This document shows, piece by piece, positions 9,768-24,549 of a stretch of 64,000 nucleotides of DNA (positions within the stretch are counted from its first letter, which is position 1; the number at the start of each line of letters is the position of its first letter). The stretch is from an uncultured Peptococcaceae bacterium. Lineage in GTDB: Bacteria; Bacillota; Dehalobacteriia; UBA4068. The notes under the pieces were generated by a model. It saw only the letters and a list, made by a program, of their open reading frames with translations, was not told the origin of the DNA and made no database searches. The position numbers and the translations under genes are program-made. The stretch covers positions 21,696 to 85,695 of the forward strand of contig CAYJPF010000001.1 of the NCBI GenBank assembly GCA_964372025.1, in the 5' to 3' direction.

Positions 9768-10865
9768 TTACGCCAATGTAATTTGAGCAGCAATAGCATT
9801 AGTTGCTATTCCAGTTCCCCAAGATTTCATCATTGTAGTTGTTTGTAATAGGTTAGCCATATCAAATTGACCAGTTGTATTTGTCATTGTAGATCCTTCA
9901 ATAACTGCTTTAACAAGTTTTTGAGAACTTGGAGATACAATGTAAATTTTCTTGTCATTTAACGCCATTTTGTATGGAGTTCTAACATCTGGAACTTGTG
10001 GAAGAACCATAGTGTCATATCCCCCAATAGTTTTAAGATAACCAACTTTTACATAATCACTATCAACGAAGTATCTATAGTTAGCATCGTTTGGTATAAT
10101 TTTAGATAGAGCTAATTGAGTACCTACGATAACTGGCTTAGCTCCACCATTCCATGCTCCAACTTTTTGAGCAAAAGATATCATAGTTTCATAGTCATAT
10201 CCTGTAGCTTTTAATTGCTCATTTACTGGTGTAGCTGGAAGTGCTTCCATAGCTGTGTCGAAAGTTGTATAAATATCTCTTGCCATCGCAGTTTCAATTG
10301 AACGAACTGCTTTCATAGCAAATTCAGCAAGACTTTCGTGTCCAGATAATATTCTATATAAAGAAGCTTGAACAGAAATTTCTCTTAATTCTGGGTTGAT
10401 TGTAACTTGACCCACGAATTGTTTCTTTAATTCTGTCATTCTTCTTGCTCTTCCATGTTTGGATACAACAAATAGATCTCTAGGTTTTACATCGAAACTA
10501 GCATTGTCTCCAAAGCCTATATTTCTTACTTCTGTATAAAGACCTGTAGATTCTATTATAGAATCTGGAAGTATCATATCTATCATAGCCCCAACAACTG
10601 CGAAAGTTGCCCATACAGTTTGAGGGTTCATTGCGAACACTTCAGGAGCTAGATTTGTATCATTTTTAATTCCTGAAACTCTTTCAATTTCTTTTAAAAG
10701 ACCAGCATTTAGTCTTTTTTCTTTTTCATCAAGACTTACAGTGTTATCAAAACTAACTTTTGCATCATGAAAAGTAGCTTTATATTGATTAAAATAATCT
10801 TTAAATTGCTCGTAAATGTTAACATTTTCACCAGCAAATAGTTTTATTTGATTTGAGATTGCCAT
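9768..10865 (-). CDS. major capsid protein candidate
   Basis: 365 aa with a strong RBS. Its size and its position after the scaffold-like gene and before the head-tail genes fit a capsid protein. No motif-level proof. Confidence 0.4.
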   Translation of the reverse strand: MAISNQIKLFAGENVNIYEQFKDYFNQYKATFHDAKVSFDNTVSLDEKEKRLNAGLLKEIERVSGIKNDTNLAPEVFAMNPQTVWATFAVVGAMIDMILPDSIIESTGLYTEVRNIGFGDNASFDVKPRDLFVVSKHGRARRMTELKKQFVGQVTINPELREISVQASLYRILSGHESLAEFAMKAVRSIETAMARDIYTTFDTAMEALPATPVNEQLKATGYDYETMISFAQKVGAWNGGAKPVIVGTQLALSKIIPNDANYRYFVDSDYVKVGYLKTIGGYDTMVLPQVPDVRTPYKMALNDKKIYIVSPSSQKLVKAVIEGSTMTNTTGQFDMANLLQTTTMMKSWGTGIATNAIAAQITLA

Positions 10866-10896
10866 TTTATTTCCTCCTTATAATTATTCGTATTAA

Positions 10897-11454
10897 TTAG
10901 TTAGCTACTACTTCAAAAGTGAAAGCAGGAACTCTTTGGTTTGCACCTATTTGAGAGCCATCAGTAATAGAAATGTAAGTTTCTCTTACTAGCTTCATTG
11001 AGAATGCATCAGCAGTTTGAACATCAGCCCAAGTTAATCCCATACTTCCATCTGTAGCATTTACATATGCACTTACTCCAGCAGTATAAGTTCCTAAAAG
11101 AACTGCTCCACCAGTAAGAGTGATTAAATCTCCAACCACTGGTTTAAAACCACTGAATACTTGATTAGCATCTATTGCAAAATCACGAACATCAGGATTT
11201 AGTCCTTTATAATACTTTTTATCTCCAGCTTTAGTCATAACTACTTCTGGTTCAGCAGACATCCATACGCCTAAAAGTCCACCAGTTGCTGGAGCTTCAA
11301 TTGTAAATACTTCTTCTTCATCAGCAGTTGTGCTTATAGCACCTGGTTTAAAGATCATTCCATTTTCTACTTCAGCAGTATGAACAAAACTTCTGTTTAG
11401 TGCATCTATATTCATAGCACTAACTAGTGTTTGAATTAAAACATTTTTTGCCAT
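10897..11454 (-). CDS. hypothetical head-module protein
   Basis: 185-aa Gly/Ala/Thr-rich ORF lying between the scaffold-like and capsid genes. Confidence 0.35.
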   Translation of the reverse strand: MAKNVLIQTLVSAMNIDALNRSFVHTAEVENGMIFKPGAISTTADEEEVFTIEAPATGGLLGVWMSAEPEVVMTKAGDKKYYKGLNPDVRDFAIDANQVFSGFKPVVGDLITLTGGAVLLGTYTAGVSAYVNATDGSMGLTWADVQTADAFSMKLVRETYISITDGSQIGANQRVPAFTFEVVAN

Positions 11455-11475
11455 TTTTTATTTCCTCCTTAAAAT

Positions 11476-13284
11476 TTAGTCCCAAAGACCTTTTGGTTTG
11501 TTTACATCGTTATTTTCTTTTTCAAATGGTAGTGCGATCGCTTTGACATCTGCATTAGTCTCAATCCCTGTTGAGAATACAAATGCTTTTGCATATATTG
11601 CATTCTTCCAATTGTCAATATCATTTAAGCTGAAAGTTTCAGCATCAGCTTTCCAAGAATCTAATTCTTCTTGTGGTACAACAGAACATTTTAATTGAAC
11701 ATCTGCTAATGTTGATAGTACAATTGCATCTTTCTTTTCTTTTTCAACGTTGGCTTTAAATTCAAGTAATGACTCTATGTTTGTTTTTAACTCTTCATTT
11801 TCTTTTTTGAATACAGCATATTCGGCTTTCATTTCATCTAATGACATCATAGCATCTTCTTTGTCATCATCATCATCTTTGCCTTCATCATCATCTTTGC
11901 CTTCATCATCATCTTCCATTTTTTCTACTGGCTTTTCATCTTTTTTTTCATCTTCGAAAGCTTCTCCATCTTTCTTTTCTGCGTCTTTTCCGTCTTCAGT
12001 AGAAAATTCTGTCGCTGGAACTTCAGCCTCTATGACTTTTGTTTCTTTTTCTAGCATTTTCAATAATCCTCCTATATCAGCATATTCATTAAGAGAAAAA
12101 TCTTCAGTCCATGTAAGTCTAACTTCAACCTTGCTATTCATATCAATAGAAATCTCTTTGTTATTCACAGTATAGTTTATTTTAAAGTGATCACATCCAT
12201 TCCAATTATAAATAATTACATATTCATCAGAATAATCATTTATATAAAAATCTTCAAAATATTCAGACAACGCTTCATACATCAATTCTCTTTTTTCACT
12301 ATCTAGCAAAGTGTCAAACTCTTTCACATCCATATCCATCTCTCCTTCCTGTAATTTTGTTTCAGTATTTTCTTTATTTTCAAATTCAGTAGACATACTA
12401 ATATTGGGAGTTTGAATTTCTTCATATAAACTATAAAGCCATTCTTTTCCTTCTAGTCCCCCAGATAGCATATAATTGATATACTCTTTGGTAGGTGGTT
12501 CAGTAAATTCTAACTCTGATATTTTCTTTGGAAAATACTTATGGTAATGTTTTACCTTGGTTTCACTTATTGTCTCATTATTTAATATATAATTAGCAAA
12601 TGATAATAGAATAGAGTTCGCTCCTAATTCATATTCTTTTTTCAATTCGAGAGCATACTCTACTGTATTTTTGACATCACTTGGGATATCCCATTTTTTT
12701 TCTTTAGCATAATGATATTGTTCATATGCTTTTGTTCCTACCTTTACCATTTTATCAGTAGAGAACTTAGTTATTTTAATATTGGCTCCTGGACACGCAG
12801 CAGTTCTACTTAGTCCTAAAACAGTGACTCCCATAAAACAAAAAGAACTTATCCATTCTTGCTCTTCAATAATTTCTGTTTCAAGTATCAATATTTCCAT
12901 TGATACTTCCCTATAATTATCTTGAACGAAAACATCATAAGCCCATTCAGCGTATACTTTAGAAACAATAGCATTGGCAACTAAATAGTTTTTACCATTT
13001 TCTTCCTCAAGTCTAACATCATTGTCTTTTGGGAAAAATCCAAGTATTAATTGGTCTTTCCCTTCGTGACCCATAAAGTCATTATCTTCAAACCCTGCGA
13101 CTAGAAATTTGTTATAAAGGGTAATGATTGATTCTTCTACTGCTTCTGTCTTTATTGGAAAGTTGTGTAGATTTTGACCATCGCAGCAGACCCAAATTTC
13201 TGCAATTGCCAATTGTTCATCAGAAACTTCTTCTAATAATTTAATTCTATCAATTGACAATTTTAATTTTGTTTCACTCATCAC
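11476..13284 (-). CDS. head morphogenesis / scaffold-like protein (possible protease-scaffold fusion)
   Basis: 602 aa. The C-terminal third carries an acidic low-complexity stretch (KDDDEGKDDDEGKDDDDDKED, from an 18-bp repeat) plus coiled coil. The N-terminal domain has His (MGHEG) and Ser (REVSMEI) residues reminiscent of HK97-type prohead proteases. Confidence 0.3.
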   Translation of the reverse strand: MMSETKLKLSIDRIKLLEEVSDEQLAIAEIWVCCDGQNLHNFPIKTEAVEESIITLYNKFLVAGFEDNDFMGHEGKDQLILGFFPKDNDVRLEEENGKNYLVANAIVSKVYAEWAYDVFVQDNYREVSMEILILETEIIEEQEWISSFCFMGVTVLGLSRTAACPGANIKITKFSTDKMVKVGTKAYEQYHYAKEKKWDIPSDVKNTVEYALELKKEYELGANSILLSFANYILNNETISETKVKHYHKYFPKKISELEFTEPPTKEYINYMLSGGLEGKEWLYSLYEEIQTPNISMSTEFENKENTETKLQEGEMDMDVKEFDTLLDSEKRELMYEALSEYFEDFYINDYSDEYVIIYNWNGCDHFKINYTVNNKEISIDMNSKVEVRLTWTEDFSLNEYADIGGLLKMLEKETKVIEAEVPATEFSTEDGKDAEKKDGEAFEDEKKDEKPVEKMEDDDEGKDDDEGKDDDDDKEDAMMSLDEMKAEYAVFKKENEELKTNIESLLEFKANVEKEKKDAIVLSTLADVQLKCSVVPQEELDSWKADAETFSLNDIDNWKNAIYAKAFVFSTGIETNADVKAIALPFEKENNDVNKPKGLWD

Positions 13285-13466
13285 TCATCTCCTTTCTTGT
13301 AAATTTCAATTAATTTTATAGTTTTATCAGATTGTGCATATATATAATTGCCATGTTTGTCTTTTGATAAAATGGGAATACCTTTCCCTATTAAATATTC
13401 TCCAATATCTTTATCTACAACAATTATATTATCTTTATTTAATTTATTATAATTACATACAAACAC
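13281..13466 (-). CDS. hypothetical small protein
   Basis: 61-aa ORF whose end overlaps the next gene start. Confidence 0.3.
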   Translation of the reverse strand: MFVCNYNKLNKDNIIVVDKDIGEYLIGKGIPILSKDKHGNYIYAQSDKTIKLIEIYKKGDE

Positions 13467-13468
13467 AA

Positions 13469-14002
13469 TTAGTATTCTCGCTTAATTAGTTTTGTAAATT
13501 TAGGGAAATCTTTGTCAAAATTTTGCACACCTGAGTGAACACTGTATTGAAGTGCCTTTTCTTTCCATATTATGGCTTGTTTAATATATAATGTAAGATC
13601 AGTATATACTTCTTCTAAAGATATTTTGATTCTTATATCTCTATTTTCTTCTGCAATCTCAATTGCCTCTACAATTAATCCATCTAAATCTTTGCTTAAG
13701 AATTCTAAAATATCATCAAAACAATCAATGAAATTCGTATAAGATTGTTCAAATCCATCCACAGGCAAACGCACAGGTCTAGCGTTATTGTATTTTTGTA
13801 AATCATTAAATTTATCTGCATATAGTGGCAACCAATGAGCATATGAGTGATGCACAATATCACTTGTAATTACCATATTAAAATTAACATCTAAATTATA
13901 TACAATATTATCTGCCATTGCATTTCCATTAAAGCAAGCTTGAACTATTTTGTCAATTGCACTTTTTGTTTCATCTGAAATCAAAGCCTTTATTTCTGCC
14001 AT
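13469..14002 (-). CDS. hypothetical protein
   Basis: 177-aa ORF between the portal and scaffold-like genes. Confidence 0.4.
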   Translation of the reverse strand: MAEIKALISDETKSAIDKIVQACFNGNAMADNIVYNLDVNFNMVITSDIVHHSYAHWLPLYADKFNDLQKYNNARPVRLPVDGFEQSYTNFIDCFDDILEFLSKDLDGLIVEAIEIAEENRDIRIKISLEEVYTDLTLYIKQAIIWKEKALQYSVHSGVQNFDKDFPKFTKLIKREY

Positions 14003-14013
14003 TTAGTCACCTC

Positions 14014-15591
14014 CTACTCTTGTATATTATTGCTTCTTTCTGAAGCTCCACTATCTGTTAACTGAGATGTATCTGATTTTGGTCTACCACCCTCGTTTCC
14101 TGTTGCACTATCAGTATATATATTCAACATAGGCATCAAATTATCTGCAAATTTAGAAGCCTTTGCTTTTTCCATTTGTTTTTCTAAATGATGAGGATAC
14201 ATATCTAATGAAAATGCCAATCTATCAGGAAGGACAACTCCTATAGCTGATAATTCAACGAATTCTTTTCTTCTGTCTTTGATATCTTCTGTAGTATTTA
14301 TTCCACCCAACTTGATTTTAAATTTAAAATCTTTGGTCAAACTATTTATTTGATAGTTTAAGAAATCTTCAAAATATGCATACATATAAGATAATGTCAT
14401 AACATCTACATCTAAAGATAATTGAGTCTCCATTATATTTGGCTTGTCTGATGTAAATATCAATCTCGAATTTACGCCCGATAATGACGTTGTTGTTCTA
14501 GCATAGTCCTCCAGCATATTTCTAGTACTGCCCTCAAAGTCCAATGTTTTTATATCTTCAAAAGGAGCTGCTCCTGTCTTAATAACATCTCCAATTCCTT
14601 TCTTTATCAGATTTAAGAACTTTCCAGCAGTAACATCAGAAATACCAATCATATCTTTCATATGACCGCCTTTGGCATCTTTAATCATTGGTATTAAACC
14701 AACCATAACTTTGGTTGCCTCAATCATATATTTGTTAGTTTGCAAATTTCTAATCAATGGTTGTAACACCACATCTTGAAATAATGGTGCTAAAAAAGGT
14801 ATGTTTGTCACTAATTCAGGTGTTAACTTCCAAGCCCAAAATCCATCCAATGGCGAAGTTTGAGTCCACAATGTCCAATTTCCATTTCTATTTTGAGCAG
14901 ACGATGCAGGTTTATAATTTCCTTCATTGTCATACATTACCCTATTGTACATTTCTTTAAATACATCAGGATACATATTTATATCTACTCCAGAATTTAA
15001 AAACCAATACATATTAAAATCAAACAACAGTCCATAAGACCATCTTCCTGTAATTTTGCAATACTTACTAGGCAATTCTTGGAGTGTGTATTTATCTCCT
15101 TCATTCCTTATAACCCAAAATGAAGAATCTTTACGCAATAATTCCCTCATTACTTTTGAGAATTCTTGTTTTATATCAAATTTATCTAAAAAATCACATA
15201 GGATAGCATAATCTTTTTTATATTTACTACTATTATAATCTTTAGCTTGAGCATTTTTGCATATTATATCTTTTACAGAGAAAGATAATAAATGTGCTAG
15301 GTAATAAAGCATTCTTTTATATATCATTGAAGTTAATTCAAAGAATTCTGAATACCCGATTAATTTTTCTTCATTGTTTTTCGGATCAGCCAAAGCTCTT
15401 TCAATTTCTTCTTTTGTTCCTTTTAAGGGATTGAGGTTGACATCTTGCATTTTTGCATTTATCAAATCTGGTGTAAATACATTTGGGTATCCACCATTAT
15501 ATGCTTGACGTGCAAATTCTAAGACATCAAATAGTTGTTCTTCTGTGATATTATCAGCATTTTGTTTATTTTTTTTGTTATATCCAGCCAT
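14014..15591 (-). CDS. portal protein candidate
   Basis: 525-aa ORF immediately downstream of the terminase large subunit, the usual portal position and size. Confidence 0.45.
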   Translation of the reverse strand: MAGYNKKNKQNADNITEEQLFDVLEFARQAYNGGYPNVFTPDLINAKMQDVNLNPLKGTKEEIERALADPKNNEEKLIGYSEFFELTSMIYKRMLYYLAHLLSFSVKDIICKNAQAKDYNSSKYKKDYAILCDFLDKFDIKQEFSKVMRELLRKDSSFWVIRNEGDKYTLQELPSKYCKITGRWSYGLLFDFNMYWFLNSGVDINMYPDVFKEMYNRVMYDNEGNYKPASSAQNRNGNWTLWTQTSPLDGFWAWKLTPELVTNIPFLAPLFQDVVLQPLIRNLQTNKYMIEATKVMVGLIPMIKDAKGGHMKDMIGISDVTAGKFLNLIKKGIGDVIKTGAAPFEDIKTLDFEGSTRNMLEDYARTTTSLSGVNSRLIFTSDKPNIMETQLSLDVDVMTLSYMYAYFEDFLNYQINSLTKDFKFKIKLGGINTTEDIKDRRKEFVELSAIGVVLPDRLAFSLDMYPHHLEKQMEKAKASKFADNLMPMLNIYTDSATGNEGGRPKSDTSQLTDSGASERSNNIQE

Positions 15592-15611
15592 CTATACTCC
15601 TTTCTATAAAA

Positions 15612-18557
15612 TTAAAATAACATTGCATATCCTTCAAGTAATTTAAAATCATCTTCTAATGTTCTCTTAGGATTTATAACGTTATCTCTTCTTATTGTAT
15701 GTAATGCATATCCTAACATTGCCATGCAATAGGCACGGTCATCATGCATCTTATTTTCTTTATCAGGGGACAAATCGTATCTGTATCCACCATTTGTTCC
15801 ATCAAATCTATATATATTTACTAATTCTTCTTTTAAAAAATCTATTTGTACAAAAGCATCTTTTTCATCTTGTGAAAGCATATGAATCTCTTCTTTATCA
15901 TTATCTGTTATAAAAAATTCTTTGCCATCATACTCTAATGGGAAAGATATCAAATCTAAACTAAGCATTTCAATCAACGCATCGTACATTACTGTTTTAT
16001 ATTTTTTTGGAGACAGCAATTTTAATTTATCAATTGCGTCTGGGAAATTATATAATTCTTCCTTGCTTTCCTCAGAATCTATAAGTCCTCTATGAAAATT
16101 ACCTGATGCATCATACCAATCTTCCATAAGATAATCAGCAATTGTAACTCCGCCTCCTCCTGAACCAGAATCTATAGATAAAGAATGTATATTTTCATAA
16201 TCGGCTGACATTTTGCCATTATAATCCAACATCATTTTCTTTATATAGTCAATTTGTTCTGGAGTTCTAATTGGAGTTCTTTTCTTCTTCATAATATCTG
16301 AGAAAGAAACGCAATTAATAATATCCATTTTATATCCAACATTTTCATCTAAATATATTTTTCCGACAAGCACTATGGAGTTATCATAGCTACGAGCTGG
16401 GTCGAAAGCCAATACAAATAAGCTTCTATCATCATTGTAAAATATTGGCAAGTACTTGTGCGAATTTCTCACGATCATTGCCCTTTTAATAGGCTGTGAA
16501 TCTCCTCCATCTTTAGTAAATATATTTTTGTACTCCCTCATAGCTTTTTCGGGATTTTGTCTCATTGCTAAATCAATTGTCTCTTGATCTATAAGAGGCG
16601 TTACGGGCTTTCCTTTCATTGTAGGGGCAAGTACCATATCGCAATTTATATCTGCAACAAAATAATTCGGATTCCCCATAAACATTTGCATTGAATATTC
16701 TTTATACATTGCGAAAAAATGTGTATCAACAGAAGATGCTGATGATGCAAGTATTCTTTGATTTGGTAAACTTTTAGGAGCTAATAAATTTGCAACTTGA
16801 TCTTCTTCAGATCCATATTTTGCTGAAGCATTTTGTGTTAAGAATGGCTCAGTTGCAATAAACAATTCATTTGGAGTAAATCCAGATTCATCGTAAAAAT
16901 TTAAATTAGAACGTATTCCTCTCAATCTATCATAAGCTCCCGATAAAGAGGTGATTTCTGATCCATTAAATAATTCGCAAGAATATCTTCCGTCTTTATG
17001 TGTAAACCCATCACTCTGAGAATTGCTACGCACTAATTCCATCGCAAATATATCTGTGCCACCAGTTATACTAGTGATCTCTTTTTTTGCAGTTTTTTCT
17101 ATCTTTTTAAATGTCTCCTGAGATTGACTTGCAGTCGATGCTAACAAATATGTTTTGTGACTTGGAAACAACATTGATTTAGCCATTATAAATGGAGCTG
17201 ACAGGAACGAATTATGTGTAACGGTGTGTTTTCCGCCACATATAAATAGTCCAGTGTTGTTGCCAACTGTGATGCATCTCATAGGTTTCTTAATTTTTGT
17301 TTTCCTTACGTCTACGATTGCTTTTGTCTGAGATATATCTGAAGATTTGTCTAATAACCTATCATATTTTCTTTTAAGTTTAAAAACTGCCATTTCTTTA
17401 CTTGCTGAAAAGTGAATTATATAAGTAAAAGCTTTTGTGCCATCTTTTTTTACATAGTTTATATTTTCTTTTTTTGTTATATTATTTTTTATTCCTAACG
17501 AAGATAATAATTGAGAAACTTGACTTATCAAATTATAATTAGTTTGGGAAAAACTACATCTTCCACTTTTATCAACATACCCATCACTATCCATAAGCCC
17601 TTGCAATAACTCTAGTCTTTGCTCTACAGAAGCATATAGATATTCATTTGGAATATGTTTGTTTTTGTATAAGTTCATTTCTCTGATTTTATTTAAAAAT
17701 GATCTTTTTTTCGAGCTCATTTTCGAACATCCATTTTCTTTAAAATCTTTTTCAAGGTCAAAAATAAATAAAAAACAATTATTTCTACTTTTATCTTTTT
17801 TTGTCTTAAAATAAGAAATTTTATTCTTAGTATTTTCAATCAAATCAGAAATATCGCTTTCAGCACATGTGATGTGAGAAGCACTACTAGTCCCATCTCC
17901 TAACCAATATCCTAGTATATATGGATCGATCTGCAAATTGTGTGATTTAGCATATTGAAGAGGTTTGCACAAAGGAATATGGAATCTATATTCTTTATTT
18001 CCATCTGTTCTTTCTATTAAAAATTTGCTATATAAAAAATCTGTATTTCTCAAACATGTCTGTCTTTCTCTTCTTTGCATAAATGACTTATCATAAACAG
18101 ACCATAAATGACTAGAATTTGCCTCAATTACTTCTCCATCTTCAAATTCAACTTCATAAACTTCTTCAAAGATAATAGGATTCAAATGTATGACTTCTGT
18201 TAATTTTCCATCATCGCCAAATATCTTATCTCCTATTTTTAATTCTCCAATTGTTTTTGTTACATTGTATCTATTTTCTTTTTCTCCTCTGTCTTTTGTC
18301 GAGACGTATACTTTGGTATCAAGAGTGACCGCTTTACCAGCCGATCTGTTCATTGCCCATAGACAAAAGGGAGTTCCCCAACTATTCATGAATACATATT
18401 TTTGAAAATCCATCAGATATATTCCAAAAAAATGTTCTACAAAACTAATTGGATTCTTTCTGCCCCATTGTATAATTTCACACCATTTTAAATATGCCTC
18501 ATATTTTCTTGTTGACATCTCGGTAGGAGTTTGTTTTATTATAATATTAGAATTCAT
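15612..18557 (-). CDS. terminase large subunit containing a LAGLIDADG intein in the Walker A motif
   Basis: The N-extein ends ..AMNRSAGK and the C-extein begins SFLSAPF.. Splicing restores the P-loop GKS. The intein has block A (AVTLDTKV), block B (EANSSHLW), two LAGLIDADG motifs (ILGYWLGDGT, LLQGLMDSDGYV) and a terminal HN followed by Ser+1. Confidence 0.7.
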   Translation of the reverse strand: MNSNIIIKQTPTEMSTRKYEAYLKWCEIIQWGRKNPISFVEHFFGIYLMDFQKYVFMNSWGTPFCLWAMNRSAGKAVTLDTKVYVSTKDRGEKENRYNVTKTIGELKIGDKIFGDDGKLTEVIHLNPIIFEEVYEVEFEDGEVIEANSSHLWSVYDKSFMQRRERQTCLRNTDFLYSKFLIERTDGNKEYRFHIPLCKPLQYAKSHNLQIDPYILGYWLGDGTSSASHITCAESDISDLIENTKNKISYFKTKKDKSRNNCFLFIFDLEKDFKENGCSKMSSKKRSFLNKIREMNLYKNKHIPNEYLYASVEQRLELLQGLMDSDGYVDKSGRCSFSQTNYNLISQVSQLLSSLGIKNNITKKENINYVKKDGTKAFTYIIHFSASKEMAVFKLKRKYDRLLDKSSDISQTKAIVDVRKTKIKKPMRCITVGNNTGLFICGGKHTVTHNSFLSAPFIMAKSMLFPSHKTYLLASTASQSQETFKKIEKTAKKEITSITGGTDIFAMELVRSNSQSDGFTHKDGRYSCELFNGSEITSLSGAYDRLRGIRSNLNFYDESGFTPNELFIATEPFLTQNASAKYGSEEDQVANLLAPKSLPNQRILASSASSVDTHFFAMYKEYSMQMFMGNPNYFVADINCDMVLAPTMKGKPVTPLIDQETIDLAMRQNPEKAMREYKNIFTKDGGDSQPIKRAMIVRNSHKYLPIFYNDDRSLFVLAFDPARSYDNSIVLVGKIYLDENVGYKMDIINCVSFSDIMKKKRTPIRTPEQIDYIKKMMLDYNGKMSADYENIHSLSIDSGSGGGGVTIADYLMEDWYDASGNFHRGLIDSEESKEELYNFPDAIDKLKLLSPKKYKTVMYDALIEMLSLDLISFPLEYDGKEFFITDNDKEEIHMLSQDEKDAFVQIDFLKEELVNIYRFDGTNGGYRYDLSPDKENKMHDDRAYCMAMLGYALHTIRRDNVINPKRTLEDDFKLLEGYAMLF
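17211..18332 (-). mobile_element. intein (about 374 aa) with LAGLIDADG homing-endonuclease domain, inside the terminase large subunit
   Basis: Boundaries were mapped at codon level: Ala1 at 18332-18330 directly after GK, and the HN terminus at 17216-17211 followed by Ser. The Ala1 start resembles KlbA-type inteins. Confidence 0.6.
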
Positions 18558-19669
18558 CAGCCAGTATTCCCACCTAACTTAACAATTTCTTGTTTTAAAT
18601 ATTCATTTTCTTCTTTTGATAGCCTTAAATTTTCTTCTAATGATTTGTTGCTTTTATCTAAAGACATCATTTTTTCTCTTTGTTCTTTCAGCATTGTTGC
18701 ATAGTCATTCTCATCAAACATAAGTTGAGATGCTATACTTTTATTGCTTATTTCGGCTATTTTTATGAAAGCTTCTGATGTTTTTATATCAAAAAAGTTT
18801 TCATCAACTGGCTTTATTTTCTTTTCTCTGAGCTCTTTTAATTTTCCAGATAAAGTATCTGATCCTTTTGTACTTCCATCTTGTTTACTTGAAGTAAGAC
18901 GATTTTCCTTTGCAAATGACATTATTTGCATAGTAAGCATTTTTTTTATTTCCATCAATTGTTTTAGCTTCCCACTTTGAGACTCTAAATTTACTGTATC
19001 TTTAGTCAAATTACTTATAACATTATTCATAATGTCTAATTGGGAAAACATCTTTGTAACCTCAATTACAGCAGATAATTTAAAACTGTCTCCTACTGTA
19101 CTCTCATCTAAATAATTCAATATAGTATTATATAAAAATGGTCTTTCGTCTGCATTAGAATCGGCAAAAGGGTCGTACTTAATCAATTCAATTACTTCAT
19201 TCATATTTTCTAAATCTTTAGCGTCGAGGACTTTGAATTCCTCTTGTGTTAAAGAATTCTTAACTTTCATCGTCTGTACTGCCGAATTAGAGAAATCCTT
19301 ATTAGAATATTGTGGCAATGAATTTATTTTTTGTATATATAATTTAATTACACTTGTATTCAAAGTGTCTTTTTGTTCTACTAGAGATTTTGCTAGAACT
19401 TCATCGTAATACATATCTAACATCTGACATATTTTAAATACAGAAAATTTTTCATCATCGTATTTCAATACAAGGCTATCATATAAATCAACAATGCATT
19501 TTTTACATATCCATAATTTATTATCATTACCTTTGGTTAGCATACTATAACTATTGTAAAAAGATAATATAACATAGCTTTTCCCACAATATGTGCAATA
19601 ATAATCTTTACTTCTCTTTTCTCTTGTTTTTTCTTCAATTGTTTCACTCATTTGTCTCGTCACTCCCAT
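18557..19669 (-). CDS. hypothetical protein with CxxC zinc-finger-like motifs and a coiled coil (terminase small subunit candidate)
   Basis: 370-aa ORF whose stop overlaps the terminase start. It carries CTYCG...CKKC and a C-terminal coiled coil. Confidence 0.25.
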   Translation of the reverse strand: MGVTRQMSETIEEKTREKRSKDYYCTYCGKSYVILSFYNSYSMLTKGNDNKLWICKKCIVDLYDSLVLKYDDEKFSVFKICQMLDMYYDEVLAKSLVEQKDTLNTSVIKLYIQKINSLPQYSNKDFSNSAVQTMKVKNSLTQEEFKVLDAKDLENMNEVIELIKYDPFADSNADERPFLYNTILNYLDESTVGDSFKLSAVIEVTKMFSQLDIMNNVISNLTKDTVNLESQSGKLKQLMEIKKMLTMQIMSFAKENRLTSSKQDGSTKGSDTLSGKLKELREKKIKPVDENFFDIKTSEAFIKIAEISNKSIASQLMFDENDYATMLKEQREKMMSLDKSNKSLEENLRLSKEENEYLKQEIVKLGGNTG

Positions 19670-19746
19670 CTATCTCAATTTTCATTTATAATTCTTAAAA
19701 AAGAGTACACTTTTTATAAATGTACTCTTTTTGAAAAATTATATTA

Positions 19747-20967
19747 TTAATTTAAAATTATATTCTTTGTTCCAATATGACCATGAATATCATTAAATTC
19801 ATATAGTCTTACAGAAGCTTTCGATCCAACTCTCAAAGAATCTGCATATGGACAACTCCCTATAAAAGATGGAGACATTAATAATGTCACATCATTGCTA
19901 ACTCCTTCGCTTACAGATAGTGTTTTTGCAGTATGTTTGTGTCCCATAAAACAAATATCATAAAATATACGGTGTTGCACAGACAAGTCTTTTAAAATTG
20001 TTTCTGTGTTTTTGACTTGGTGTCCGTGTATAGCGATACATTTTGTATTAAAAATATCAAATGCTAAAAAATCTGTTTCATAATCTTTATGTATTTTAAC
20101 TCTAGGATTATTTACTAGAAGATCATATACATAATTTATAATTATAAGCTCCATATCTTCAGTTGCTATTTCGCTTGCCTTTGTACTCAATGGTCTTATC
20201 TGCGTATGATTTGACATAGGCACATGATAATATTCTACATCGCAATTTATTGAAAGTTCATTTAAGAAATTAGCTAGAATTCTTGATATCTCCACAACAC
20301 TCATTACCACAGATGTCTCATTTAAAGTCAAATCACTAATTCTTAACATTCCTTGAATAGTGTCCCCAAGGTTTAAAACTTTGATTTTATTAATCTTATT
20401 TTTGATTATTTCCTTATTTACTTCGCAAAGCATTTTCTCAAATCTTTGAATACATATTTCTCTTGAATATTTATTGTTCATTCCAACAAAATGAGAGTTA
20501 TAGTGTATGTCTGAAATAGCCAAAACATATTCCTTATTTTCATCTAAATAGAGATTATTGCTATATACAAAATCTGGAACGTCTAATGTCTCAATAGCAT
20601 TTCTTACGTTTTCATAAAACAATTCGAATCTACTGTGAATTCTCAATGTTTTAAGCTGTTCATTTTTTGTCGCTTGAAGTTTATATCTTTCTCTAATATA
20701 TTCTTCTTTTGCTTCTTCAATTTTTGATATTGCATCTGATTGTCCATTATCTGATATTTCACTTAATGCATCTTGATAACCATCATTAAATCCCTCAGAA
20801 TAAGGTCTAAACCATTTCCTATAAGCGTCAGAACTCTTATTTTCTCCACTCTCGCTATTTAGCAAATCTGCAATTTCTTCATTGGTTAAATTATATAGTT
20901 TTCTATTCCTGAAAAGTCTGATCTTGTATTCTTTTAAAGTCTCATCTTCTCTTTTTTGAAGCTCCAA
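19747..20967 (-). CDS. calcineurin-like metallophosphoesterase
   Basis: Motifs LAISDIHYN (DxH), NLGDTIQG (GDxx), SNHT (GNH[DE]-like), IHGHQ and GHKHT (GHxH). Confidence 0.55.
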   Translation of the reverse strand: MELQKREDETLKEYKIRLFRNRKLYNLTNEEIADLLNSESGENKSSDAYRKWFRPYSEGFNDGYQDALSEISDNGQSDAISKIEEAKEEYIRERYKLQATKNEQLKTLRIHSRFELFYENVRNAIETLDVPDFVYSNNLYLDENKEYVLAISDIHYNSHFVGMNNKYSREICIQRFEKMLCEVNKEIIKNKINKIKVLNLGDTIQGMLRISDLTLNETSVVMSVVEISRILANFLNELSINCDVEYYHVPMSNHTQIRPLSTKASEIATEDMELIIINYVYDLLVNNPRVKIHKDYETDFLAFDIFNTKCIAIHGHQVKNTETILKDLSVQHRIFYDICFMGHKHTAKTLSVSEGVSNDVTLLMSPSFIGSCPYADSLRVGSKASVRLYEFNDIHGHIGTKNIILN

Positions 20968-21032
20968 TAAATCAACTCCTTTAACACAGTGGGATACTAA
21001 CCGTTAGTACCCCACACTTCAATTTTTCCAAT

Positions 21033-21317
21033 CTATTTTACAGGAATTTCAGAGGCAATTCTCTTTAATTCACTTGTATTATCTATTGTTATTTTATTCT
21101 TAGGTGCGATATCAATCACTTCTTGTGTTTTAGGATTGATGCCCTTTCTAGCTTTACTAGTTTTAATTTTTGCAGTAAACATACCATCCTTAACAACTCC
21201 ATCAGTTGCAAGTCCCTTTGCTCTTGCTTCATTAATTGCATCAAGGCAAGTTCCAACATCTTTTTGTGTAAATCCAGTTGCATCTGCTACTGCTTTAATT
21301 AATTCTACTTTAGTCAT
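21033..21317 (-). CDS. HU/IHF-family DNA-binding protein
   Basis: 94 aa. MTKVELIKAVA..GFTQKDV and the GINPKTQEVIDI arm are typical of HU. Confidence 0.7.
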   Translation of the reverse strand: MTKVELIKAVADATGFTQKDVGTCLDAINEARAKGLATDGVVKDGMFTAKIKTSKARKGINPKTQEVIDIAPKNKITIDNTSELKRIASEIPVK

Positions 21318-21360
21318 TTTATCTTATTCTCCTTTTCGCTTTTCGCTTTTCGCTTTTCTC

Positions 21361-22005
21361 TTAAATAATTATATCTATATCAAAAACAATCTCATCTGCC
21401 ACACCATAGTCTATCGCTTCTTTAGCTGTCAAGAACCATTCTTTTTTAGAATATTTCCCATATATCTGTGTAGTGATTTTTGAATGTTCTAAAATATACT
21501 GTTTTACTTCTTTTTCTGTTTTTTTAATATCTTCAACTGTTTCAATAACTTGATTAGTTGTCCCTGAAACTCCATTTACATTGCCTTGATGTATAAGTAT
21601 TTTACTCTTAGGCATCACATACCTTTTGTCTCCAGCAAGGAATATCAGAGCTCCTGCTGACATACATATTCCCATATTGATAGTGTATATTGGAGTCTTG
21701 CTCATCTTGATAATATCAATTAGAGCATTTGCAAAATCCAATCCTCCCCCATATGTATAAATATATATATTGATAGGTTGTCTTGATTCTACAGGAATAT
21801 TTATATCTTCTAAGTTCCATTTCATTATATATCTAATGAAGTCCATATAATATTCACTAACTGTGTCATCTAACCATATCTTTCTATCTTTGAGATTTTC
21901 ATAGTAAACCATTGTAGCTGGATTTGGTAATTGCATATTATATAGTTCTTCTCCACCTACTATCCCAAAATCTCCTAATGATATCGATATTTCTTCTTTT
22001 CTCAT
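21361..22005 (-). CDS. ClpP-family serine protease
   Basis: GICMSAGALIFLAGDKRYVMPKSKILIHQ parallels the E. coli ClpP segment [28 protein letters not shown] that holds the catalytic Ser and His. Confidence 0.65.
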   Translation of the reverse strand: MRKEEISISLGDFGIVGGEELYNMQLPNPATMVYYENLKDRKIWLDDTVSEYYMDFIRYIMKWNLEDINIPVESRQPINIYIYTYGGGLDFANALIDIIKMSKTPIYTINMGICMSAGALIFLAGDKRYVMPKSKILIHQGNVNGVSGTTNQVIETVEDIKKTEKEVKQYILEHSKITTQIYGKYSKKEWFLTAKEAIDYGVADEIVFDIDIII

Positions 22006-22037
22006 TCAATTCTCCTTTACTCTAACACTCTAGTTTT

Positions 22038-22447
22038 TTACATCTCATCTGCTAGTCTTGAAATAGGATTTCTATAATCTGATTTAAGTTTAATACATCC
22101 AAATTGTTTATTTCCCCTAAATATCTCTATCATTCTTTCCATTCCAGCATCTTCTTCGTTTAGAACATCTTTTTGCTCTAAGATATCTCCTTCAATTAAC
22201 AATTTGCATCCAAATTTGCATCGTTGTATAATTGTTTTCATTTGATATATATTTATATTTTGGGCTTCTGTTACAATAACAACATCTCTCTCTCCAAATT
22301 CAACTCCTCTAATTTTACTTAAAGGAATGACTTCTAATTTTTCTTCATAAAGAAGAGTTGTTACTAAATCTGATCCACCTAATTTTGTTTTTAAAATCAT
22401 ACCTATATTATCATCCAAAAGTTTGTCTGTAAGACTACCTGGCAAAA
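22038..22447 (-). CDS. PIN-PhoH (YlaK-like) ATPase, exon 2
   Basis: PhoH C-terminal half: LPGSL..., IRGVEF, VVIVTEAQN (Walker B/DEAQ), GDILEQKD. It joins exon 1 in frame (T + TT gives Phe). Confidence 0.55.
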
Positions 22448-23741
22448 CGGTTTTCACTATAACTTTCATTATAGTCCAGACTATATCTTAATCTTAATTA
22501 ATTTTTATTTTTTAGATTTAAATATTTATCCCTTTTACGTTCTAAATATCTTTCGCAATTCTCATAATACAATTTGTCCATTATCTTTAAAACTTGTTGT
22601 TTTCCTCTCCATGCACAATGCCATGCATTTGTTTTAAATATCTTGTTGGATTTATTCTTTTTAATCATTTTGTCAATAATTTGTTGTATTTGCATTGTTA
22701 TGTTTTTAGAATAACTTGTAAAATGCAATGTTACATCTTTACCTTCTTCATCATAAGTAATGCATCCATCTCCATCAAACAATCCTCTTACAAAATCAAC
22801 TCTATATTTGTCAGGGATAAATTCTAATTTAAGAGAATCAATTTCGTATGTTTTATTTGGAACAATATTGTATTGCTTTAAGTCATCAAACATTTTTTTA
22901 CTTACAAATCCAATAGAACAATAGCCATTTCCTCTATTGTCATATTCAATTTTTGCATCCAAATTCAAATCATTTTTAAACTTTATAATTGTTTCAACGT
23001 CATCTTTCTTTAATCCAAACCTTATTTGATAAGTAGTATTTTGTATATTTCTAACATTGCCGTCAGCAAACAAAAATCCTATCCAATATGCTTTGAGTGG
23101 ACTATCTATTACTTCAAAATAGTCTTCATTAATAAATTTGTTTACAAAATTATTGTTTGGTTTACTTATTTCATTTTTCCTTATTATAAAACTTAAAGTA
23201 TTTGTATCTACATTATATTCTTTTGAAAGTTGGGATATCGTATATTTGTTACTCTCATATTTGTTTCTTATATCAGCTATCTCATCTTCTGTAAATTTTT
23301 TGCGTTTTCTTCCGCCTTTTATATAAACATTATTATTTCTCAGTATTCTATTTATCTGAGAGTATGACAAATCAAACACTTTTGTCATTTTCAATATAGA
23401 TACATTATTATTTGTATAATATTCTATCACTTTATTTTTTAGATTTAAATCCATTTTGTTTCCTTTAATTAATTAAGATTTGTTGTACTTCGAGATTTTA
23501 CTCCCTACTCCCTCACGGGATAGTCGTTGAACGTTCTCCTATTCGGAGCTTCGCTGCTGATTGCCCATTGTACTAGTACTTAGGATTTAACCATATACCA
23601 TCCAATTAATTTTTTCTGCTTTCGCAACTATTCCATTTAAGCATATTTCATCTTTCTGTTTTAGTTTAATTGGCTTTAGGGTATTCCAGCAATTCACAAC
23701 ATTTTCAATGCATATCACTATACAAGGGGGCTATGCCACTA
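22448..23741 (-). mobile_element. group I intron with a LAGLIDADG homing endonuclease ORF in P8
   Basis: Conserved P (AAUUGCUGGAAUA), Q (AAUCAGCAGC), R (GUUCAACGACUA, 23516-23532) and S (AAGAUAUAGUC, 22479-22489) elements are present. The exon 1 terminal U and an omega-G at 22448 define the splice sites. The spliced junction reads EPIG-F-LPGSLTDK, matching the PhoH consensus GFLPG. Confidence 0.6.
22498..23454 (-). CDS. LAGLIDADG homing endonuclease (intron-encoded) with N-terminal HTH repeats
   Basis: Two LAGLIDADG motifs (AYWIGFLFADGN and FVRGLFDGDGC). RBS AAAGGAAAC. Confidence 0.7.
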   Translation of the reverse strand: MDLNLKNKVIEYYTNNNVSILKMTKVFDLSYSQINRILRNNNVYIKGGRKRKKFTEDEIADIRNKYESNKYTISQLSKEYNVDTNTLSFIIRKNEISKPNNNFVNKFINEDYFEVIDSPLKAYWIGFLFADGNVRNIQNTTYQIRFGLKKDDVETIIKFKNDLNLDAKIEYDNRGNGYCSIGFVSKKMFDDLKQYNIVPNKTYEIDSLKLEFIPDKYRVDFVRGLFDGDGCITYDEEGKDVTLHFTSYSKNITMQIQQIIDKMIKKNKSNKIFKTNAWHCAWRGKQQVLKIMDKLYYENCERYLERKRDKYLNLKNKN

Positions 23742-24549
23742 ACCCTATTGGTTCACTTCCTTTTAACTCTTTGCAAGTTGATAACATATATATTTTGTTT
23801 ATATTTCCATTTTCCAATGCAGACAATGCATATCCTAATGAAAGAATTGTTTTTCCACTGCCACTTCGTCCAAACAAACAAGTGATGTTATTTGTTGAAA
23901 TACTGTCAAACGCACATCTTTGAACCACATCAAATGGCTTAACTTCTCCAATATATTTATTTGTAAATTTTTTATGAGAAAGTTCAATGTGTTCTTCTCC
24001 ATTCCATTTTAGAATACTCACAACATCATCTGTCTTGTCTTTCACAAGGATATATTCGTTAATTGACAAATCATAAATGTTTTTATCAAGATTTTCATAA
24101 AAATATGCTAATTCATCGTCGGTGTTTATTTTAACAAATTTATATCCTTTGAAGATTTCTTTAGCTTTATAGTCATTAAAATCTCTAACTCTAATACCTA
24201 ATGCCCTACATTTTTCAATCATATTTAAATCTTGAGTAAGCATTATCGCATCTCTATCTAAAGTTTCTTGAACGTGTAATGCACTTAATACAATTCTATT
24301 ATCGGGTCTTGTTATATCTAAATCTAATATATTTACCCTTGTTGCATTTGGCATTATATATATAAATTTATCTTTCAGCTCATTGATTTTTCTCATTGCT
24401 TGACGTGCTTTAAAAGATCTTGATGGATTTTCACTTGTTTTTAATTTATCTATTTCTTCTAAAACTACAATCGAACAATAAATTTTTTCATATTCTTCTA
24501 ATTCAACATCATTTAAAAGAATATTAGTATCTACAATGCAAGATTTCAA
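23742..24549 (-). CDS. PIN-PhoH (YlaK-like) ATPase, exon 1
   Basis: TTG start at 24549 with RBS AAAGGGTGA. An N-terminal PIN domain is followed by the PhoH Walker A (GRSGSGKT). The exon ends ..EPIG with a terminal U at 23742. The ORF-track tail LVA* is intron read-through. Confidence 0.55.

Follow-up and report, generated by a model that had tools for sequence, protein, structure and literature searches.

The locus analyzed here lies in a 64-kb stretch of DNA (64,000 nucleotides of contig CAYJPF010000001.1, called the window below). On the minus strand, one unbroken frame encodes the precursor of a phage terminase large subunit (TerL), in which 374 amino acids (aa) with the features of an intein are inserted inside the Walker A motif. 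The precursor reads ...CLWAMNRSAGK / AVTLDTKV...GGKHTVTHN / SFLSAPFIMAK..., where slashes, here and below, mark junctions. An earlier note made on this DNA had described an extein ending in AMNRSAGK, a 374-aa insertion starting with AVTLDTKV and a C-terminal VTHN followed by Ser. All three are found in the 981-aa frame, in which the insert closes with HTVTHN and SFLSAPF comes next. The parts of the gene are the following:

15612..18557, minus strand: TerL precursor open reading frame (ORF), 981 aa, unbroken frame with a stop codon at its end
18333..18557, minus strand: N-extein, aa 1-75, terminating in the Walker A residues ..NRSAGK
17211..18332, minus strand: predicted class 3 intein, 374 aa, precursor aa 76-449, between the Lys and the Ser of Walker A
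17208-17210, minus strand: Ser+1 (Ser450), which completes GKS
15612..17210, minus strand: C-extein, aa 450-981, Ser+1 first, then the remaining ATPase (Walker B-like NFYDESGF) and the nuclease domain

The compositional contrast is faint, with a G+C content of 0.287 in the insert, 0.31 in the N-extein and 0.32 in the C-extein.

Identity of the interrupted gene

The identity of the host protein was established by profiles and fold, because the extein gave no match in NCBIfam and nothing significant in a single-sequence search against the PDB. Pfam returned only a weak TerL_ATPase match (E = 0.022) for the extein spliced in silico. PHROGs assigned the precursor to terminase large subunit families: phrog_2 matches the C-extein (5.7e-17), and three other TerL families give values from 1.7e-45 to 1.3e-22 with matches that take in the intein region. 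The spliced extein was then used as query for a homolog search, which yielded 1,905 homologs. The best of them are about 600 aa long and up to 68% identical (P0002), and several are named "terminase" by NCBI. A profile of the TerL homologs compared with the PDB has T4 gp17 as its best, weak match (E = 0.039). In that profile alignment msrnsgkTT is paired with the Walker A motif of T4 gp17 (LSRQLGKTT) and ydesgf with its Walker B segment (IDECAF).

The TerL fold was examined on an AlphaFold2 (AF2) model of the intein-less homolog P0002, in place of the window protein. This model (pLDDT 80.7) contains a strand (residues 62-67), a loop (68-72) and a helix (73-87), which is the classic strand / P-loop / helix arrangement, and the intein insertion point falls between K73 and T74. 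Its best Foldseek match is T4 gp17 (7.5e-15), followed by weaker matches to D6E, Sf6 gp2 and HK97 TerL; isolated terminase ATPase and nuclease domains are also matched. On this modelled fold, the host protein is a phage large terminase, with an N-terminal ATPase of the ASCE type that carries both Walker motifs (A and B) and an RNase H-like nuclease at the C-terminus. A portal gene (14014..15591, minus strand; phrog_2739, 6.9e-53) lies directly downstream, and together with the fold matches of P0002 and the PHROG families it bears out the large terminase host proposed earlier.

The insertion site in related terminases

The earlier note had suggested aligning the intein-less extein with terminase homologs. 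In this alignment GK[ST] is contiguous exactly at the insert site: eight intein-less orthologs (alignment A1) read ...SRN(A/S)GK-[T/S]-(F/T)L... and are gap-free there. The fused intein-less junction of the window TerL reads ..GCTGGTAAA / TCGTTCCTG.., also given as ..CAGATCGGCTGGTAAA / TCGTTCCTGTCAGCTCC... When a TerL profile was made from 88 intein-less homologs, its match to the window ORF fell into two parts (profile positions 2-76 and 73-603), with the break at the insert. Because the P0002 model and the T4 gp17 alignment place the P-loop at this point, the insert separates the Lys from the Ser/Thr of Walker A. In alignment and model alike, its removal restores GKS, as the earlier note had proposed.

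Among the best 120 TerL homologs, 113 are without the insert and are collinear across the site, and the insert is present in 7. Such a sporadic pattern is as expected for a mobile element. Extra sequence at the exact insert point also occurs in six orthologs (P0007, P0013, P0023, P0048, P0078 and P0027).

The last of these, P0027 (757 aa), is a sister TerL in which about 150 extra residues at the identical site form a mini-intein without endonuclease. It retains HLW, MRCITV and VTHN/S and is, as far as its sequence tells, an example of endonuclease loss in this lineage.

Class 3 signature of the splicing domain

The splicing blocks were found as AVTLDT (block A), SSHLW (block B), MRCITV..GLFICGG (block F) and VTHN/S (block G). 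They are distributed as follows:

18003..18332, minus strand: N-terminal HINT half, blocks A and B, aligning to the class 3 DnaB inteins 6rix/6riy/6bs8
18330-18332, minus strand: Ala1 (Ala76, codon GCG), non-nucleophilic residue 1
18117-18119, minus strand: Asn(B7), block B, from the residue table
18108-18110, minus strand: His(B10), His150, block B, in ANSSHLW
18102-18104, minus strand: Trp(B12), Trp152, block B, in ANSSHLW
17211..17327, minus strand: C-terminal splicing half, blocks F and G
17274-17276, minus strand: Cys(F4), Cys428 (intein Cys353), block F, in MRCITV
17217-17219, minus strand: Thr(G5), Thr447, block G
17214-17216, minus strand: His(G6), His448, block G
17211-17213, minus strand: Asn(G7), Asn449, block G

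Class 3 inteins are defined by a non-nucleophilic residue 1, a co-varying Trp(B12)/Cys(F4)/Thr(G5) triplet (WCT) and Ser or Thr at position +1 (PMC2807308). The window insert has A76, W152/C428/T447 and Ser450 at these positions. Ala1, which had been treated as an oddity, is therefore no anomaly, since a non-nucleophilic residue 1 is what defines the class. The "TxxH" block B reported in the earlier note is absent: the block reads A-N-S-S-H-L-W, with Asn at B7. A class 1 intein, with Cys, Ser or Thr at position 1 and Thr(B7)-x-x-His(B10), was rejected on these two residues, Ala1 and Asn(B7).

Conservation was counted across 104 aligned relatives of the intein, all of metagenomic origin. Each of them has His(B10), Cys(F4), Thr(G5) and Asn(G7), an invariance that excludes chance. 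Trp(B12) is found in 102, His(G6) in 103, and Ser or Thr at +1 in 103; residue -1 is Lys in nearly all of them. A search of the PDB with the intein sequence placed three class 3 DnaB mini-inteins at the top: 6rix (5.3e-9), 6riy (1.8e-8) and 6bs8 (2.4e-6). The His-x-Trp of block B, the Cys of block F and the Thr-His of block G match in the alignments with 6rix and 6riy, and the terminal Asn matches in 6rix. In block B, ansshlwsv of the window is aligned with adaahqwpt of 6rix.

Residue 1 itself is varied among the 104 relatives (A, G, Q, L, M, S, C, P and D). Close relatives at the same TerL site carry Cys1 (P0122, P0143, P0145) or Ser1 (P0125, P0129, P0136) with a complete WCT triplet. At the level of these sequences, residue 1 toggles between nucleophilic and non-nucleophilic inside one clade.

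Fold of the intein and its endonuclease

An AF2 model of the intein was computed with five flanking residues on each side and a 92-row alignment (pLDDT 93.6, pTM 0.92). It shows an alpha/beta middle domain wrapped by beta-rich N- and C-terminal parts. In Foldseek the best matches are PI-SceI structures (7e-20, TMq 0.68), and the next are the endonuclease-bearing inteins TliVMA, PhoVMA and PI-PfuI. The middle domain is matched by the I-DmoI family and the splicing domain by mini-inteins, among them 6bs8, "The class 3 DnaB intein from Mycobacterium smegmatis", with a root-mean-square deviation of 2.5 A. The model also matches gp41-1 and MchDnaB-1. According to the model the insert has the HINT fold.

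The nested endonuclease is located as follows:

17328..17960, minus strand: LAGLIDADG homing endonuclease domain (limits approximate), from Pfam, the PI-SceI alignment and the fold
17895-17897, minus strand: motif 1 Asp (D221), in ILGYWLGDG
17658-17660, minus strand: conserved Lys, in NKHIP
17583-17585, minus strand: motif 2 Asp (D325), in LLQGLMDSDG

Both LAGLIDADG motifs announced by the earlier note are thus present. Each motif helix closes with an acidic residue, and by the fold matches the two belong to an alpha-beta-beta-alpha-beta-beta-alpha core. Inside the insert Pfam finds LAGLIDADG_3 (PF14528, 4.7e-13) and Hom_end (PF05204, 3.5e-8), with a weak, sub-threshold Hom_end_hint match. In the sequence alignment ILGYWLGDG and LLQGLMDSDG pair with LLGLWIGDG and FLAGLIDSDG of PI-SceI, and the Lys of NKHIP pairs with that of VKNIP (K-x-I-P). 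We take the two motif Asp and the K-x-I-P Lys to be the counterparts of the catalytic Asp/Asp/Lys of PI-SceI. The endonuclease is probably active, to judge by these aligned residues.

Splicing blocks, conservation, fold and insertion site lead to the same reading: the element is very probably a full-length class 3 intein, a HINT domain with a nested PI-SceI-like LAGLIDADG endonuclease, inserted between Lys and Ser of the TerL Walker A motif.

Two side observations concern the closest intein clade. Only this clade shares with the window intein some 11-17 additional residues (YVSTKDRGEKENRYNVT; intein residues 9-25, window 18258..18308, minus strand) that follow block A and precede the first hairpin, and there model confidence is lower (pLDDT 71-85). 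The TerL clade with the closest inteins (P0131, P0135, P0138-P0143) reads ..NSRK/ before the intein instead of ..NSGK/. An Arg at the glycine position of Walker A would be uncommon in a working P-loop; some clusters of this group contain hundreds of sequences.

Proposed splicing and homing

We infer the splicing chemistry from experiments on other class 3 inteins (PMC2807308, PMC5222942, PMC7664689). In this class the block F Cys is the obligate first nucleophile and two successive branched intermediates are formed (PMC2807308, PMC5222942). Since residue 1 is Ala, splicing would not start at the intein N-terminus. Cys428, placed by His150 (B10), Trp152 (B12) and Thr447 (G5), would first attack the Lys75-Ala76 peptide bond and hold the N-extein as a thioester branch. 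The N-extein would then be handed to the side chain of Ser450 (+1), and cyclisation of Asn449 would free the intein. A final O-to-N acyl shift would give a normal Lys-Ser bond and a 607-aa TerL with an intact ..SAGKS.. P-loop.

Because 374 residues split the Walker A loop, the precursor should be unable to bind ATP properly and be inactive in packaging before the intein leaves. The same argument has been made for mycobacteriophage TerL inteins, and all five TerL inteins tested there spliced efficiently (Kelley et al., PMC5050341). Homing would proceed by cleavage of intein-less TerL alleles in co-infection, followed by repair that copies the intein in.

It is conceivable, and in our view quite improbable, that the intein responds to redox state or metals as a switch and so retards the maturation of the packaging ATPase, in a phage whose host would be anaerobic and low in GC. 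The idea comes from the dependence of splicing on a single internal cysteine and from the effect of oxidants, which reversibly block class 3 DnaB inteins (PMC6195587); H2O2 likewise inhibits MchDnaB1 (PMC7664689). If it were true, the intein would be a regulator and not a pure parasite.

Mobility and distribution

The history of the intein was examined with an intein-only search, which lists proteins of at most 654 aa; the 981-aa window protein is not among them, and the closest inteins lie on truncated TerL fragments. The most similar inteins among those listed (51-58% identical, full length) sit in TerLs whose exteins are 37-50% identical, the latter identities resting on 24-226 aligned residues. 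Conversely, the TerLs with the most similar exteins (55-61%) bear inteins that are 37-47% identical. This discordance, measured as pairwise identities over short extein fragments, points to transfer between terminase lineages.

The intein family is very large: a cutoff of E <= 1e-3 gives 17,324 cluster representatives, and one of E <= 1e-30 still gives 1,756. Proteins P0160-P0240 carry the same class 3 type, always after Lys, in dCTP deaminases, RecT, PD-(D/E)XK/Cas4-like nucleases, IstB-like ATPases, an ADP-ribosylglycohydrolase and two other terminase families. These occurrences suggest repeated switching of class 3 inteins between host proteins.

Close relatives of the window gene are scarce. 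No match was returned when the ORF was compared by megablast with 50,697 phage records. The same records gave nothing in a tblastn search with the C-extein alone, so that no close TerL relative was seen among cultured phages; full-protein matches there are due largely to the intein. A scan of genome contigs gave a sole TerL match (39% identical, in a Christensenella metagenome-assembled genome), and IMG/VR only intein-less TerLs of at most 54% identity. A syntenic metagenomic relative, L001, has an SPbeta-like module with genes, in this order, for PhoH, a ClpP-like protease, HU, a YonJ-like and a YonG-like protein, TerL, a putative portal and a YonD-like protein. Its TerL is intein-less, and its empty site is identical to the fused window junction at 34 of 60 nucleotides.

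Evaluation of alternative readings

Two observations weigh against a full-length, mobile class 3 intein. B7 is Asn, whereas it is Asp in most relatives outside the closest clade; Asn is found at B7 throughout that closest intein clade as well, and B7 is dispensable in the class 3 prototype (PMC2807308). In addition, a close intein-less allele was not found, the best being the L001 site with 57% DNA identity over 60 nucleotides.

This second point bears on the alternative that survives best, possible though we consider it unlikely: splicing would be intact, with a decayed endonuclease and an intein that is now a fixed, vertically inherited passenger which no longer homes. Phage records, IMG/VR and the L001 comparison yielded neither a closely related intein-less allele nor a near-identical intein copy, and the mini-intein of P0027, at the same site and without homing endonuclease, indicates that endonuclease loss occurs in the lineage. 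However, the domain of the window intein is full length and confidently folded in the AF2 model, both motif Asp and the conserved Lys are retained, and intein and extein identities are discordant, as past transfer predicts.

That the insert no longer splices, leaving a dead intein or a TerL pseudogene, is very unlikely. The 981-codon frame is intact with every catalytic position retained, and a TerL profile search of the window found no second TerL. The gene also occupies a normal operon (yonG-like / TerL / portal) with a one-base ATGA-style overlap, as in the intein-less relative L001.

Still less credit can be given to a class 2 (KlbA-like) intein, which has no block F nucleophile and whose N-terminal junction is attacked by residue +1 itself. 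Residue 1 is indeed Ala, as in KlbA inteins (PMC2807308). Yet class 2 inteins are by definition without the WCT triplet, and described members have Asp at F4 and Cys at +1 (PMC2807308), whereas Cys(F4), Trp(B12), Thr(G5) and Ser+1 are all present in the window intein and conserved across the 104 relatives; the top PDB sequence hits also belong to class 3. Class 2 was rejected on the triplet and on Ser+1. Finally, a native accessory domain of the terminase family is refuted by the alignment, the 113 uninterrupted homologs being collinear across the site, and has virtually no likelihood left.

A co-conversion of extein flanks, with S+1 and 'SAP' common to a donor-like clade, was also considered and dropped, S+1 being present in some intein-less TerLs too. 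The full-length class 3 intein remains the reading that we retain.

Other features of the window

A custom profile of the endonuclease domain recovers exactly two LAGLIDADG ORFs in the window, one in the TerL intein and one inside PhoH:

22038..24549, minus strand: PhoH (PIN_4 and PhoH domains), split
22448..23741, minus strand: PhoH insert, 1,294 nucleotides
22498..23454: free-standing LAGLIDADG ORF in the PhoH insert, 318 aa

The earlier note had mentioned a second LAGLIDADG element in PhoH and called it an intron. The element stands, by the profile and by the 405-aa PhoH restored without the insert, which is collinear with the intact L001 gene. The intron is putative: Rfam has no intron-model match in the window as a whole, nor, even at E <= 1, within the PhoH insert. 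The upstream exon ends with U and the insert with G, as group I introns do, and the predicted ligated exon reads ..ATAGGGT / TTTTGCCAGG.... The 64-kb window contains no tRNA gene and no Rfam family at gathering score.

The structural module (window 9768..24549) is syntenic with the yon genes of SPbeta, and YonD, YonG and YonJ domains are found in L001. The product of 9768..10865, a putative major capsid protein, shares 38-42% identity with proteins of Enterocloster phages and with a phage contig from the human gut. The phage host is probably a low-GC anaerobic Firmicute. The portal protein has a weak, sub-threshold Pfam match to the prokaryotic STING domain (E = 0.0015; 19 bits, with the cutoff at 27.1), probably by chance.

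Significance and comparison with known systems

In annotation, this gene is best entered as encoding a TerL precursor that contains a class 3 intein, with a predicted mature protein of 607 aa; Ala1 needs no special account. Published surveys are centred on actinobacteriophages, and the present case contributes a well-resolved TerL intein of class 3 from an SPbeta-like lineage of low GC. Its clade, with discordant identities, the P0027 mini-intein and Cys1/Ser1 relatives that keep the WCT triplet, is a reasonable data set on the movement of class 3 inteins between terminases, and it also suits the question of how freely residue 1 varies. Protein engineers could also take an interest in it, as a class 3 intein with Ser+1 that is compact and modelled with confidence. 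Specialists will not be surprised: it is a sound but ordinary case of well-documented biology.

Terminase P-loops had been called a known intein hotspot, and published cases agree (PMC2807308, PMC5050341, bioRxiv 10.1101/2025.01.02.630785), as does the TerL intein of Klebsiella phage vB_KleM_RaK2 at the same Walker A site (..ARQMGK/AISNNTPIL...PTHN/TTV..). Class 3 inteins strongly prefer P-loops of helicase-like ATPases, "terminase large subunits of bacteriophage" among them, and most are inserted in the ATPase P-loop motif (Tori 2010, PMC2807308).

The RaK2 intein has the same class 3 signature (A1, EDHLW, CRCLQV, T-H-N) and a LAGLIDADG endonuclease. It differs by its identity of about 28% over the aligned region and by Thr at +1, and its TerL belongs to an unrelated, T4 gp17-like lineage of a Gram-negative jumbo phage. 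Hint and LAGLIDADG domains have been noted in the TerL of RaK2 and K64-1 (PMC5259590), and related jumbo phages are likewise grouped with RaK2. The TerL intein of mycobacteriophages LittleE and Omega, described as class 3 (bioRxiv 10.1101/2025.01.02.630785), has a canonical LAGLIDADG domain, lies in the ATPase domain and is 32% identical across the whole intein. Its site is different: in LittleE, a high-GC actinobacteriophage unlike the window phage, the Walker A motif SRQNGKGS is intact and the intein is located about 27 residues downstream, after ..HEFK.

The class 3 prototypes (MP-Be DnaB, M. smegmatis DnaBi1 6bs8 and M. chimaera DnaB-1 6rix/6riy) share the WCT triplet, the non-nucleophilic residue 1 and Ser/Thr+1, but the solved structures are mini-inteins without endonuclease and the host is a replicative helicase. 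PI-SceI, the yeast VMA1 intein, has the same association of HINT and double-motif LAGLIDADG domains and is the closest structural match; it differs as a class 1 intein (Cys1) with a sequence identity of about 15%. At the mycobacteriophage TerL1-a site, as in the window, the intein splits the TerL P-loop after its invariant Lys and before the hydroxyl residue; the host TerL there is of the terminase_1 family. This Lys/Thr position has been called the "classic" intein site (Kelley et al. 2016, PMC5050341). In a 2025 survey the TerL inteins of actinobacteriophages number 293, and the class 3 inteins, spread over four host proteins, 287 (bioRxiv 10.1101/2025.01.02.630785). The literature already describes class 3 inteins from the ATPase domains and P-loops of terminases, and the window case is set apart only by its lineage, a low-GC (~29%) SPbeta-like phage without close cultured relative.

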